From IMG/VR virus record IMGVR_UViG_3300042568_000467, positions 1 through 64,000 of that record: a DNA stretch of 64,000 bases; one strand, 5' to 3'. The translations under genes and the position numbers were made by a program. The stretch is from a virus. Below the pieces are notes generated by a model. It saw only the letters and a list, made by a program, of their open reading frames with translations, was not told where the DNA came from and did no database searches. Position 1 is the first letter of the stretch. The number at the start of each line of letters is the position of its first letter. Below are positions 16,393 through 33,454 of the stretch, one piece after another.

Positions 16393-17478
16393 TTAGTTTT
16401 TATAGTATCCTCTTTTTTTATTTACGTTAAAAGGGAAACCAACCATTCCAGTGTAGTCACCTATATGAATAGACCCATTGCTATTTTTAGTAACAATATC
16501 GTCTTCATAAACCGCTAATCTAAAATATTTAGGGTCGTTATACTCTTTGGATATTCTTTCGTACTCCATTTTTTTATATTCTTCTAATCCATAATGCTCT
16601 GCATTTTTTTTCCATAAATCTGACGGTTCGAATTCTTTGGCCAAGAAGGTTCTTACTAGATACCTGTCGCCCGATTCAACTCTTTCTACCCCGTGCCAAT
16701 ATGGTACTGCTGATGGGAAAACAGTTATGTCCCCAGCCTTTGGTCTATAGTGAATTACATCTCCATCATTTTCATTTAAAAATGTAAGCTCGCCACCTTC
16801 ATAGTCATCGTTTAAATACATTGTAATTGTTAAGATAAAATGATTTCCGCCACGCTCTGTATCATATTGATGAGTATCTGTATGATAAGTCATAGACATA
16901 GAATAATCATCTGGGGTTTTAGAATGATGCAATATACCAAAATTAGGTATCTGCCATGAACCATCTTTAAGATTAAAATTATTTACTTTATCAAAAGATT
17001 CGTCTGCTCCCCAATCTTTTATATAGTCTAGTAAAACTTTTTTATACGCTTTTCTTATACTATTCAAAGCAGTTCTTTGATCTATGGAGTCATTGTCATT
17101 TATTAAACTATTCTTATTATCTTCAAACCATTCTAAATCTTCTGGGGGAACTCTAGTTTCACCTATAACCTTATCACACTTGTGGCGCAGGCTGTCTCCC
17201 TCTTTTTCTAGCAAAAACCAATTTCTTTTATTACAGCATTCATCAGATTCGTCTCCAACGTTTAGCAGAGATCCGTTACTTAAACTAAATAACCAATTTT
17301 TTAATTGTGTGCTTGTTCCTATACGACCCCAATTGCCCCACTTATTTATGTAATATTTACCCTGGTTTTCTTCAGTTTCCGATTGTTTAATTGTTGAAGT
17401 AATAAATTCTGTATTATCTAAGACTCCGCTATAGACCATTACTTTTGGCATCAATTGATTTTTTTGCATATCAATCAC
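16393..17478 (-). CDS. 2OG-Fe(II) oxygenase (P4H-like, enlarged)
   Basis: YHTD...MYLNDDYEGGEL...WHGV...GDRY. Confidence 0.85.
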   Translation of the reverse strand: MIDMQKNQLMPKVMVYSGVLDNTEFITSTIKQSETEENQGKYYINKWGNWGRIGTSTQLKNWLFSLSNGSLLNVGDESDECCNKRNWFLLEKEGDSLRHKCDKVIGETRVPPEDLEWFEDNKNSLINDNDSIDQRTALNSIRKAYKKVLLDYIKDWGADESFDKVNNFNLKDGSWQIPNFGILHHSKTPDDYSMSMTYHTDTHQYDTERGGNHFILTITMYLNDDYEGGELTFLNENDGDVIHYRPKAGDITVFPSAVPYWHGVERVESGDRYLVRTFLAKEFEPSDLWKKNAEHYGLEEYKKMEYERISKEYNDPKYFRLAVYEDDIVTKNSNGSIHIGDYTGMVGFPFNVNKKRGYYKN

Positions 17479-17879
17479 TTATTCTTTTTTCTTTTTTCTG
17501 CCAGGATTGAAAAATCTTTAACTTTAGTATCTCCCATATATGACCAAGCATATCCATCTTCAATCATCTGTTCATTAAGAGACTTTGTATTTCCGTCAAC
17601 ATAGACCCACCCTAGTATTCTTCCATACTTTTCTGAGCTATCTGGTTTTTCAGTTTTTACAACTATATCCTTAGCATCCTTAAGCTTATATTTTAAGTAA
17701 TCTTTTGATTCAATTCCAAGTGTTTTTTCAAACTTATCAGTTGTTCTAGACTCTGGTGTGTCAATTCCTGCCAACCTTAGTCTTTGAGAGTATGATATGC
17801 TAAATCCCAAATCAATATCAACATCGATAGTGTCTCCATCAACTACCTTAGTTACTTGTTTAATTCTGTATTCAAACAT
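17475..17879 (-). CDS. thermonuclease (SNase-like), no signal peptide
   Basis: VVDGDTID, RLAGIDTPE, KYGRILG, LNEQMIEDGYA; start at ATG 17879 after AAGGAG. Confidence 0.9.
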   Translation of the reverse strand: MFEYRIKQVTKVVDGDTIDVDIDLGFSISYSQRLRLAGIDTPESRTTDKFEKTLGIESKDYLKYKLKDAKDIVVKTEKPDSSEKYGRILGWVYVDGNTKSLNEQMIEDGYAWSYMGDTKVKDFSILAEKRKKNK

Positions 17880-17883
17880 ATCT

Positions 17884-18015
17884 CTCCTTAATTTTAAGGA
17901 GCAGTTTTTTACAGTCATACTCAGGACTATACCAGTTGTTTATAGTCGCTGTCTCCCCCGACTATCCTGGGCGGCGATGCCCGAATCTGCGACTCCCCAG
18001 TGACGGGGTGCAGAT
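17884..18015 (-). ncRNA. putative structured RNA / cis-regulatory leader with pseudoknot
   Basis: GC-rich island after TATAAT (18020-18025); four hairpins, an H-type pseudoknot and an SD-sequestering stem. Confidence 0.65.
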
Positions 18016-18029
18016 CTCTATTATACTAT

Positions 18030-18452
18030 TTATTTGATCTTGATAGTCTTTGGCTTCTTCTCTTCTGGCAAAATGCGTACGATATCGATCTTAAGCATTC
18101 CGTCCTTTAGTTCAGCAGCCTTTACTTCCATATATTCACCAAGAGCCCACTCACGAGTAAATTTACGGGCAGCAATTCCACGATGGATAAACTTCGAATC
18201 GTTATCCTCTGTGTTTAATTCTCCCTTTACAGTAAGCTTGCCGTCTGCTGTTGATACGTCAATATCTGTTTTAGCAAATCCAGCGACTGCTAGTTCGACA
18301 ACAAAGTTGTCTTCGTCTACCTTGATTACGTTATATGGTGGATAGTTAGTCGCACTCGATACCGTTTGAGCGTGGCTCCATGTATCTAAAGCTCTATCAA
18401 ATCCAATAAAAAAAGGATCCTTAAAAAGATCCCATGTATATGTTGTTACCAT
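18030..18452 (-). CDS. small heat-shock protein Hsp20 (IbpA-like)
   Basis: NYPPYNVI, ELAVAGF, HRGIAARKF, A.LKDGML.I, PEEKKPKTIKI. Confidence 0.95.
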   Translation of the reverse strand: MVTTYTWDLFKDPFFIGFDRALDTWSHAQTVSSATNYPPYNVIKVDEDNFVVELAVAGFAKTDIDVSTADGKLTVKGELNTEDNDSKFIHRGIAARKFTREWALGEYMEVKAAELKDGMLKIDIVRILPEEKKPKTIKIK

Positions 18453-32455: not shown

Positions 32456-33454
32456 TCACGAGTTCCAAGATCTGTATTCAATGTCGGATACAGAATTTTT
32501 AATGCAGGTCTTTATTTCCTCATCGGTCATGTCGCCAGCATCTTTTGCATCATGAGGATATATCTTACCATATTCAAACGAAGCCCACAAGAGGTCTTTG
32601 AATTTTAATTTATTAACTATACTTCTGCCTAATTCTCTGCCAGCCTGATCTGCATCAGTCATAATAGTTATTTTATTGAAATGTCTATTTAATAAATTTT
32701 GTTGTTCGGTAGACAAAAATCCACCTAGGGTTGCAACGACATTTGGGAATCCAGCTTGATGAACACGAATTGCATCAAAGCTAGACTCTACAACTATGAC
32801 ATGGGCCCCTACTTTTTTGGCACGGTGAATGTTAAAAAGCGTTTTGCTCTTTGGAAGATTTGTGCTATTCTTAAAAGATTTTCCTTCAACAGATCTTCCA
32901 ACAATGCCAATTGGCATTCCGTCTGGGCTATGAACTGGAACAGTTACCATATCCATGTTTTCAGAATATCCTAAAGAAAAATCTGTTACTGCCTGTATTT
33001 CAATACCACGAGACTTAAAGTATATCTTTGCTTTATCGCTGTTAATTAATCCATTATGTAATTTATCTAAAGTATCTTGAGAGAACTCTTCAAAGACAGG
33101 CTTTTCATTCATTGCTTCTGACAATAAGTCGTCAAAATTTTCTAACGACTCAGTTTCTTTTGTCGCAATAAACCTCATTGCCTCAAAGTCATTTTTGTGC
33201 ATGACACGCTTTACTAATTCCTGTAGAGTTCCAGCTTCACCGCATGAAGGATTAAAGCATATGAATGCACCCTTTTCACGACTTACGCTAAAGCTTGACG
33301 TGTGTCTATTAGAATGAAATGGGCAGTAGCATAGAAAGTCATTACCAGTCTCACCAACAATTTCAAGTCCTATTGATTTTAGGATTGACTTGATATGGTT
33401 TGGCGTGTAGTGCGTGGTATCGACTTCCCTTGTGTTATACCCTCTAATTGCCAT
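32456..33454 (-). CDS. dnaG: DNA primase
   Basis: CPFH...C...C zinc finger, VVESSFD, TOPRIM DADQAG, KDAGD. Confidence 0.92.
   Translation of the reverse strand: MAIRGYNTREVDTTHYTPNHIKSILKSIGLEIVGETGNDFLCYCPFHSNRHTSSFSVSREKGAFICFNPSCGEAGTLQELVKRVMHKNDFEAMRFIATKETESLENFDDLLSEAMNEKPVFEEFSQDTLDKLHNGLINSDKAKIYFKSRGIEIQAVTDFSLGYSENMDMVTVPVHSPDGMPIGIVGRSVEGKSFKNSTNLPKSKTLFNIHRAKKVGAHVIVVESSFDAIRVHQAGFPNVVATLGGFLSTEQQNLLNRHFNKITIMTDADQAGRELGRSIVNKLKFKDLLWASFEYGKIYPHDAKDAGDMTDEEIKTCIKNSVSDIEYRSWNS

Follow-up and report, generated by a model that had tools for sequence, protein, structure and literature searches.

The luteovirus-type −1 frameshifting pseudoknots (e.g. that of BWYV, about 28 nt) combine a first stem of 4–6 bp with a 2-nt first loop starting with C, a 1-nt junction and an A-rich third loop of about 6 nt, and the preQ1-I riboswitch carries a conserved ligand-pairing cytosine in its second loop. 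Transcripts can also be protected from their 5′ end, as by the stem-loop in the 5′ untranslated region of E. coli ompA or by the Shine-Dalgarno (SD)-like elements B. thuringiensis cryIIIA STAB-SD and the stabiliser of phage SP82, and the REP-type intercistronic stabiliser hairpins of enterobacteria are repeated elements located just past stop codons in operons. In plant and other eukaryotic RNA viruses, the coremin motif (xrRNA_C) and its Watson-Crick variant xrRNA_WCC stall the exonuclease Xrn1 and ribosomes; coremin consists of a hairpin hp1 of 3–4 bp with the loop YGAD or YGNNAD, a conserved spacer of about 10 nt, GUUAAACUAC, that contacts this loop, and a second hairpin, hp2, which is required (Dilweg et al.; PMC6546385; PMC10321173). 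Herein, we analyse an RNA leader on the minus strand of a 64,000-nt stretch of phage DNA (the window; positions 1 to 64,000 of the 91-kb, approximately 85% complete IMG/VR virus record IMGVR_UViG_3300042568_000467), located between an hsp20 gene and a gene for a thermonuclease of the SNase family, and previously proposed to be a riboswitch-like RNA that gates the nuclease (the original prediction). Conservation and covariation among homologues identify this leader as a conserved, modular, sense-strand RNA composed of interchangeable hairpin cassettes and a covariation-supported H-type pseudoknot. Its features and those of the two flanking genes are as follows.

17899 to 17930, minus strand: compact H-type pseudoknot, corresponding to the P4 helix plus loop pairing of the original prediction, with covariation in both stems (S1 and S2).
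18020 to 18028, minus strand: −10 promoter-like box TAGTATAAT, whose TATAAT (18025–18020) is unvarying in 90 aligned homologues.
17985 to 18015, minus strand: 5′-terminal hairpin P1, AUCUGC-A-CCCC-GUCACU-GGGG-AGUC-GCAGAU, whose 29-nt core is found exactly in more than 118 IMG/VR contigs.
17969 to 17982, minus strand: small hairpin P2, GGGC-AUCGCC-GCCC, a variable and optional module.
17942 to 17965, minus strand: hairpin P3, AUAGUCG-GGGGAGACAG-CGACUAU, an optional insert with an unvarying, SD-like loop.
17884 to 17901, minus strand: anti-SD hairpin CUCCUUA-AAAU-UAAGGAG (−8.3 kcal/mol), which buries the SD AAGGAG (17889–17884).
17475 to 17879, minus strand: SNase-family (thermonuclease) gene of 134 aa, ATG at 17879, the first gene past the leader (Pfam PF00565, E 1.2e-16).
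18030 to 18452, minus strand: hsp20 gene upstream of the leader, its 3′ end abutting the promoter-like box (Pfam PF00011, E 9.6e-20).

Homologues were collected from IMG/VR by a search with the SNase protein (588 relatives, 80 loci kept) and by a scan for the exact 29-mer of the P1 core (17986–18014), which returned the contigs counted above. Altogether, 89 distinct leaders were read and 90 sequences were aligned; the 102 leaders found by the 29-mer only are referred to as P1-anchored and are regarded as unbiased for gene linkage. The columns of the −10 box, of P1 and of the pseudoknot do not vary in the 90-sequence alignment; taken with the exact P1 core, this conservation greatly exceeds chance. 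The proposal of a structured, strand-specific RNA past a conserved −10 box is supported. Within the window, TATAAT and every helix named in the original prediction were found on the minus strand where it had placed them, and the predicted GC-rich island was confirmed, the 150-nt minus-strand spacer between hsp20 and SNase having a GC content of 0.51–0.52 vs approximately 0.3–0.4 in its flanks. Folding of a 161-nt stretch with RNAfold recovered P1, P2, P3, P4 and the SD hairpin together at −48.3 kcal/mol (z −2.75 vs shuffles, 2 of 200 shuffles being equally good).

In the pseudoknot, S1 pairs AUAGUC with GACUGU (17930–17925 with 17916–17911) and S2 pairs the loop segment GAGUA (17922–17918) with UGCUC (17903–17899), leaving CU as loop 1 (L1), a single U at the junction and AAAAAAC as loop 3 (L3). 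Positions 17930–17899 fit the pattern nnnC-CU-RRRYA-W-Gnnn-NNAAAC-UYYYY exactly, with both stems paired, the family consensus being nnnC-CU-GAGYA-W-Gnnn-NNAAAC-UGCUC. Compensatory changes in both stems uphold the H-type topology that had been proposed. For S1, the leader alignment holds 32, 14 and 12 double changes; furthermore, among 100 copies picked by sequence pattern alone, pair 7-20 is formed in all 100, by four pair types, and pair 8-19 in 98, with a covariation score of 0.361 vs 0.128 in shuffles and at most 0.084 in slid registers. For S2, 226 candidates were chosen on S1 and the loops with S2 left unconstrained, and full complementarity was found in 218 of them vs none in slid registers. 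These candidates carry 13 pair combinations, including GGGUA:UACCC, AAGCA:UGCUU, GGGCA:UGCCC, GGACA:UGUCC and AGACA:UGUCU; in the P1-anchored alignment the loop strand is paired at 99.5%, with the compensatory GGGCA:UGCCC in two rows. C-G is replaced by U-G in some copies, U-G occupying one S2 position in 29 of the 100, and since U-G pairs are this frequent, the fold is specific to the sense strand as RNA. The junction nucleotide is A in 42, U in 46, C in 5 and G in 3 of 96 copies, and from its sequence the pseudoknot would be of the triplex type.

Several other readings of the same nucleotides were rejected. The segment CUGAG...GAAAC resembles a hammerhead, with the helices in the wrong order and no Rfam ribozyme match; a likeness to boxA (UGCUCUUUAA) is confined to some P1-type leaders, the next base being A in 70% of the family; and a tRNA-like ACCA tail past S2 lacks a consensus CCA, A standing at 70% ahead of a mixture of C and U. 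In addition, an AUG in the pseudoknot loop (17918–17916) is in frame with SNase and opens a 147-aa open reading frame (ORF) at 17475–17918. As the start of a leader peptide or of the protein this codon is unlikely, as no SD precedes it and roughly half of the family copies have A at the W position. A search against the Rfam covariance models at E≤10, over 1.2 kb and over 56 nt of the window, gave no match for the leader or the pseudoknot; the original prediction had likewise assigned the element to no known family.

Upstream of the pseudoknot, the leader is a mosaic. The P1-anchored leaders combine P1 and P2 in 76 cases, P1, P2 and P3 in 19 (the type of the window) and P1 and P3 in 3, and contain P1 alone in 4 (n=102). 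A separate scan for promoter-plus-pseudoknot units, from which canonical P1 was excluded, found homologous leaders with unrelated 5′ hairpins or with P2 and P3 only (contigs L234, L368, L379, L393, L418, L400, L323 and L255). The 5′ domains of 102 distinct promoter-pseudoknot leaders fall into 41 types, and different cassettes are swapped at a variable junction 3′ of hsp20. Predicted pairing begins 0–4 nt from TATAAT+6 in 96 of these 102 leaders (median 0 vs 4.1 in shuffles, mean z −2.0); on the predicted folds, structure at the very 5′ end is their common denominator. The single multi-helix aptamer of the original prediction is therefore not sustained, as P2 and P3 are optional, P1 is replaceable, and the pseudoknot is found by itself at gene ends, in hundreds of cases, and ahead of tRNA genes. 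The TAGTATAAT box itself is constant in the leader alignment whichever gene stands upstream; a consensus scan found no −35 element, and we infer promoter activity for the box.

P1 starts 5–6 nt past the −10 box, close to where the transcript is predicted to begin, and is single-copy in its own genome. Its core is exact even where the SNase protein is only about 71% identical (contig L066, the same as L089). No covariation was seen in P1 across the leader alignment, where its stems never vary and the outermost pair alone changes, inconsistently; part of this invariance is ascertainment by the exact 29-mer scan. Variants free of P1-based ascertainment comprise a loop change from GUCACU to UUCAUC, a bulge change from A to C, a C-to-U change giving a U-G pair, and one G-to-A change that breaks a pair. 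The common occurrence of CCCGUCA and CUGGGGAGU (17985–18015) raised the possibility that P1 mimics the decoding site of 16S rRNA, which was rejected because local alignment to real 16S was no better than shuffles (165 of 500); the overlap with universally conserved 16S segments is treated as a coincidence.

The P2 stem is compensated in homologues (UUCGGG/CCCGAA, UGCGGG/CCCGCA, ACGGG/CCCGU and AUGGG/CCCAU, with the loop form YCGCUA), the MAFFT columns over this hairpin being poor; it is missing in L170 and L102, and a P2-like hairpin precedes the pseudoknot in unrelated leaders of a second kind, 'type b', described below. P3 is present in 22 of the 102 P1-anchored leaders and in 17 of 81 distinct aligned rows, with four constant inner pairs and variable outer pairs (AU to UA in 3), and it also occurs in the P1-less leaders L400, L255, L323, L393 and L418. 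P1 and P3 have GGGGAG(U/A)C in common, which is SD-like and distant from any start codon. Two of the interactions formerly proposed between helices turn out to be peculiar to the window-type variant: the serial competition of the P3 3′ arm with the P4 5′ arm is absent from L097, L119 and L016, and the capture of CGGGG in P3 by CCCCG in P1 needs two hairpins that each occur alone, with P3 limited to the minority of leaders just given.

Unlike P1, the pseudoknot extends far beyond this type of locus. Across 3.35 Mb of fetched loci, a strict structural pattern matched at 312 distinct places vs 0 in the reversed or complemented sequence, and the pattern CCTGAG-N8-15-AAACTGCTC gave at least 120 further viral contigs, most of them without P1, hsp20 and SNase and several with 2–4 copies on the part that was fetched. 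Six copies are present in the complete 115.7-kb phage to which contig L276 belongs. Among the 312 instances, 234 lie outside any frame of at least 100 aa. Of 112 distinct gene ends, 63 have the start of S1 5–9 nt past their stop codon, with a sharp lower bound at 5 nt, and the stops ahead of the pseudoknot are mostly UAA (96 of 128). Of the 24 pseudoknots with a tRNA gene downstream, 21 have its start 4–8 nt further on. Start codons follow at widely varying distances across the family (15–43 nt) whereas the spacing from the stop codon is tight, which indicates that the family is anchored to its upstream side. A U-rich tract follows 70 and a new −10 box 49 of the 312 pseudoknots. The copy in the window is not located 5–9 nt past a stop; it follows a promoter and three hairpins, a context that makes up a minority class in the unbiased pseudoknot scan. 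To judge from these patterns, the window pseudoknot belongs to a phage gene-end motif that is widespread and absent from Rfam.

In its own 91-kb genome the motif is single-copy; an additional structural match at 32911–32940 was discarded, being in a coding region and at control level (1 match in the reversed genome). No copies were found in seven cultured phages (cyanophages DSL-LC02 and S-SSM4, marine virus AG-345-D19 and Streptomyces phages Gilson, BillNye, NootNoot and Jay2Jay), and a literature search for the motif sequence retrieved nothing relevant. Relatives of the window phage (L067:1095, L069:315, L349:1922, L366:1110 and similar) carry extra pseudoknot copies directly upstream of a tRNA gene, with the variant S2 pairings UGGUA:UACCA, AGGUA:UGCCU and GGGUA:UGCCU; the window's own genome has no such copies. 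In the 3.6-Mb Bacteroidia metagenome-assembled genome (MAG) JBBALJ01 (L200/G001), 9 pseudoknot copies are spread over 7 contigs (C2, C3, C6, C49, C106, C213 and C215), and the contigs inspected look phage-like, with small ORFs and an hsp20-SNase leader variant; these copies either belong to binned phage contigs or hint at the host. A host-derived motif was rejected, the pattern being present in only 2 of 300 other Bacteroidota genomes with a single match each. A scan of 185,579 species genomes for P1 gave one match, a phage-like contig binned into this same Bacteroidia MAG. This sole match, together with the lack of any tRNA similarity, rules out the GC island as an attP site or tRNA fragment; a dedicated tRNA/tmRNA search found none at the island.

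The genes around the leader vary as well. Among the 102 P1-anchored loci, the upstream gene is hsp20 in 80, and the next gene downstream is SNase in approximately 81 (a count that includes mis-called in-frame upstream starts); in 16 loci it encodes an FmdB-like zinc ribbon and in 4 it is oxygenase-like. Dedication to the nuclease, as implied by the original prediction, is thus not supported, other genes following the leader in about 20% of the P1 loci, and the leader, judged by gene order, heads a variable gene block and is not nuclease-specific. In the window, no intrinsic terminator consisting of a GC-rich hairpin and a U tract was found: UGCUC is followed by CUUAAAAUUAAGG and the SD hairpin by AGAUAUGUUU. 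On the plus strand, 17884–17911 has CAGTTTTTTA, complementary to the A-rich linker of the pseudoknot, behind the SD hairpin CTCCTTAATTTTAAGGAG, an arrangement that creates a terminator-like site for antisense transcription; this site exists only in variants with the long AAAAAAC linker.

Altogether, because the leader is a mosaic of interchangeable hairpins joined to a pseudoknot that is common at phage gene ends, a device for RNA stability or for marking a boundary is more likely than a metabolite switch for the nuclease. We tentatively favour, as the most plausible of several readings, a structured leader or small-RNA unit that is constitutive, begins with a hairpin and carries the pseudoknot as a cap; masking of the SD would be auxiliary. 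Such a unit would start from a −10-only promoter-like box, with P1 at about the transcript start, followed by the P2/P3 cassettes and the pseudoknot, and would act as RNA armour and boundary, constitutively and with no ligand sensing. The base-paired 5′ end, flush with P1, would oppose 5′-end-dependent decay. The pseudoknot would be a mechanically stable cap or roadblock tied to an upstream feature, such as a stop codon or a small structured RNA; at this locus, it would mark off a leader RNA of approximately 115 nt, stabilise it and insulate the downstream nuclease, oxygenase and FmdB genes. In the window phage, the CUC of UGCUC may in addition re-pair with the GAG of the SD into a strong masking hairpin that damps or times SNase translation.

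Several points weigh against this reading. The sequence invariance of the 29-nt P1 core and of the P3 loop is unexplained by a structural role alone and points to a specific binding partner. From the sequence, the pseudoknot may be either a 3′ cap for the upstream RNA or a 5′-to-3′ roadblock for the downstream RNA. With a U-rich tract past the pseudoknot in only 22% of the family, there is no canonical terminator. Finally, the anti-SD hairpin of the window is strong enough to compete with S2, and on these energies real translational control of SNase in the window phage could still operate.

The first of these points leads to the best surviving alternative, a protein-operated leader, in which a specific protein would bind P1 and the P3 loop GGGGAGACAG and control the stability or translation of the operon. 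Candidate partners would be the FmdB-like zinc ribbon, another phage protein, the 30S subunit via the SD-like GGGGAG, or a host factor. Such binding would account for a P1 sequence that is invariant without covarying, far above the conservation of the flanking proteins, and for the GGGGAG(U/A)C found in both P1 and P3; moreover, the FmdB-like gene directly 3′ of the leader in 16 loci belongs to the same gene block in the window (15615–15430). However, P1 is dispensable in homologous leaders, its invariance stems in part from the 29-mer ascertainment, and the cultured relatives Gilson and BillNye have an FmdB-like gene without the pseudoknot, their records not having been searched for P1. FmdB-like proteins are not known to bind RNA, and on balance we regard this reading as doubtful.

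The translational switch of the original prediction is unlikely. It would hold that the pseudoknot, leaving the SD free, alternates with the anti-SD hairpin, in which the SD is masked, the choice being made by a ligand, by temperature or by co-transcriptional kinetics and ribosome traffic. The physical basis exists, since the nucleotides CUC (17901–17899) belong both to the S2 strand UGCUC and to the anti-SD arm. The topology of the pseudoknot is that of the preQ1-I aptamer, and the distance from pseudoknot to start codon is tight (18–21 nt) in the P1-leader family. The proposed overlap of the pseudoknot strand with the anti-SD arm proved to be present in most leaders, as 47 of 64 distinct 3′ leader segments are predicted to pair CUC with the GAG of the SD, but the hairpin reaches −5 kcal/mol or better in only 23 of the 64, the window among the strong ones, and is absent in at least 6, including several ahead of the zinc-ribbon gene. 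Its strength ranges from −0.5 to −8.9 kcal/mol and is about −0.5 to −2 in many leaders, so that a conserved two-state SD switch is not borne out. With UGCUC fixed, moreover, a CUC opposite a GGAG-type SD is nearly automatic and expected by chance. Further evidence against the switch comes from the same pseudoknot past stop codons, before tRNAs and before promoters, where there is no SD to mask, from a junction nucleotide that is A or U about equally and so offers no specificity base, from the optional and interchangeable upstream helices, and from the lack of a riboswitch family match in Rfam. Comparison of the leaders places the SD overlap outside the conserved core of the element, as what appears to be an auxiliary add-on in some lineages; in the window phage it is probably consequential.

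Comparably improbable is a stand-alone, trans-acting small RNA, a regulator or decoy with P1-P2-P3 as its body and the pseudoknot as its 3′ cap, from which SNase would be expressed by read-through only. The independent small RNA had been mentioned as an alternative in the original prediction and gains some support from sister units in which the pseudoknot is followed by a promoter and not by a gene. Several types of such units (e.g. L339 3860–3985, also directly past hsp20) have the same −10 box and pseudoknot with other 5′ domains and, instead of an ORF, an extended −10 promoter within 8–10 nt and then a further structured RNA; L339 3860–4000 is one example of many. The conservation of the 5′ domains as discrete cassettes fits this reading as well. 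In about 95% of the P1-type loci and in the window, however, an SD and start codon stand 18–21 nt past the pseudoknot with no promoter or terminator between, and no target complementarity was identified.

The arrangement at L339:3860–4110 (IMG/VR 3300042888_000931) can be given in full. Past another hsp20 gene, TAGTATAAT is followed by a distinct conserved RNA, type b (AUUCCGUCAUGAUACAUGCAG...CUGAGUACGGA), which consists of a covarying hairpin and the same pseudoknot as in the window leader and occurs in dozens of contigs. An extended −10 promoter, TATGCTACAAT, stands 3′ of this pseudoknot, and past it lies another RNA, approximately 85 nt long, which GUCCCACACAGG/CCUGUGUGGGGC closes; a further TATAAT then precedes a gene for an HNH endonuclease. 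The type b RNA and the RNA of about 85 nt are both without a match in Rfam, and the same holds for the multi-copy pseudoknot loci. More promoter-proximal 5′ domains precede the same pseudoknot in three further groups of contigs (L414 and L326; L324, L364, L387, L413 and L426; L342, L348, L398, L415 and L365), examples being GCGGGGUUCAUGAAAGGCCCCGC, GGGCAGUCUUUUUUCCUUUCUCUUCUGCCC (ahead of a zinc-ribbon gene encoding MPKYDYK) and AGAAGGGCC...CCCUUCU with CCCUCCCUUUCUGGGG repeats.

A DNA-level operator or mobile promoter cassette, comparable to T4-type promoter-stem-loop cassettes and with the inverted repeats acting as DNA, would explain the swapped cassettes at the variable junction past hsp20 and the nested inverted repeat that P1 forms directly past the −10 box. 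It is nevertheless very improbable, as the pseudoknot topology and the U-G pairs work only as sense-strand RNA and the bulges of P1 are asymmetric and conserved. Although a pseudoknotted RNA does adjoin a nuclease gene, a type III toxin-antitoxin-like pairing is effectively refuted by the absence of tandem repeats around a single-copy element, by an SNase that is not of the ToxN/AbiEii type (no ToxN-like gene was found, and PADLOC matched nothing beyond a generic SNase domain) and by the non-nuclease genes that follow about a fifth of the leaders.

Regarding the wider genome, the terminase is 62–63% identical to those of Streptomyces phages of Stanwilliamsviridae, and given this kinship the host is probably a freshwater actinobacterium. 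The hsp20 stop codon lies at 18032–18030 on the minus strand. In the SNase translation the motifs DGDT, RLAGIDTPE and GR are readable, which we take to be the counterparts of the catalytic residues of staphylococcal nuclease. Past SNase follow a 2OG-Fe(II) oxygenase, a luciferase-like protein and the FmdB-like zinc ribbon of 61 aa. The SNase stop (17475–17478) overlaps the GTG start region of the 361-aa oxygenase ORF (16393–17478), an overlap that suggests translational coupling inside the leader-headed gene block.

If the favoured reading, a constitutive leader with a 5′ hairpin and a pseudoknot cap, is true, this locus would not be a new riboswitch; it would be a natural test bed for an uncatalogued and very widespread phage pseudoknot. 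Here the motif is single-copy, with a defined promoter, an assayable gene directly 3′ and an SD-masking overlap, so that effects on stability, as a roadblock and on translation could be told apart. In addition, the locus would expose a cassette system in which ultraconserved 5′ RNA domains are mounted on one pseudoknot past hsp20 in freshwater relatives, as yet uncultured, of Streptomyces phages. What it adds to the family is thus the promoter-leader context, the cassette-like 5′ domains including P1, and the overlap of the pseudoknot strand with SD masking. Comparable RNA-level devices marking gene boundaries are, to our knowledge, undescribed for dsDNA phages.

Among described RNA devices, preQ1-I (RF00522) has a similar minimal H-type pseudoknot, with an A-rich tail (AAAAAAC in the window) and a 3′ strand abutting or overlapping the SD. 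Its covariance model gave no match at E≤10 on 1.2 kb or 56 nt; the phage motif has just one nucleotide, A or U, as its second loop and lacks a conserved ligand-pairing C there, is not linked to queuosine genes, and is multi-copy at gene ends and before tRNAs. More generally, riboswitches retain all their helices and are linked to the genes of one pathway, whereas here P2 and P3 are optional, P1 is replaced and the next genes are mixed. The luteovirus pseudoknots are alike in size, topology and an A-rich L3 suited to minor-groove triples, and the family-wide distance of 5–9 nt from the last decoded codon equals the classical spacer length of frameshifting signals. Unlike them, the phage family has no slippery heptamer or overlapping frame, its stops are mostly UAA, and tRNAs or promoters may follow; in the window, hsp20, the nearest upstream ORF, ends about 100 nt ahead of S1.

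The ompA, STAB-SD and SP82 stabilisers offer a closer parallel for the 5′ part of the leader, with a hairpin flush with the 5′ end and the SD-like GGGGAG in P1 and the P3 loop, although the invariance of P1 goes beyond the needs of a generic stabiliser and the pseudoknot is an added module. For the 3′ part, REP hairpins resemble the phage family in their placement past stop codons; in contrast to REP, the pseudoknot is not an imperfect palindrome, is phage-borne, and is present here as a single copy in a leader.

Coremin is similar in its very short first hairpin (the phage S1 core is 3–4 bp) and in its A-rich conserved spacer with AAAC-U, which corresponds to NNAAAC-UGCUC in the phage motif. 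The coremin loop YGA(D) compares with the phage loop CUGAGYA(W), which contains UGAG but is 8 nt long, not 4 or 6. A hairpin of at least 4 bp located 0–3 nt past S2, the equivalent of hp2, is not enriched (46% vs 41% in shuffles and 48–52% at shifted positions). Because of the different loop length and the lack of hp2 enrichment, the phage pseudoknot is, on its sequence features, not a coremin member by definition. With xrRNA_WCC it has in common a Watson-Crick pairing of loop and spacer that yields a tiny pseudoknot, S2 being of 5 bp and covarying instead of 3 bp, and with coremin the placement just past coding regions, although the window copy is in a 5′ leader instead of a 3′ untranslated region. 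Bacteria have no Xrn1, and RNase J or 3′ exonucleases would be its counterpart. By this analogy the pseudoknot could, speculatively and with a rather low likelihood, be the phage counterpart of the exonuclease- and ribosome-resistant coremin/xrRNA-like RNAs of eukaryotic viruses, with which phages related to actinophages would cap both gene ends and a family of promoter-driven small RNAs whose interchangeable, ultraconserved 5′ domains would be functional non-coding RNAs or decoys, with the window as the first capped small RNA that doubles as a translational gate for a nuclease.

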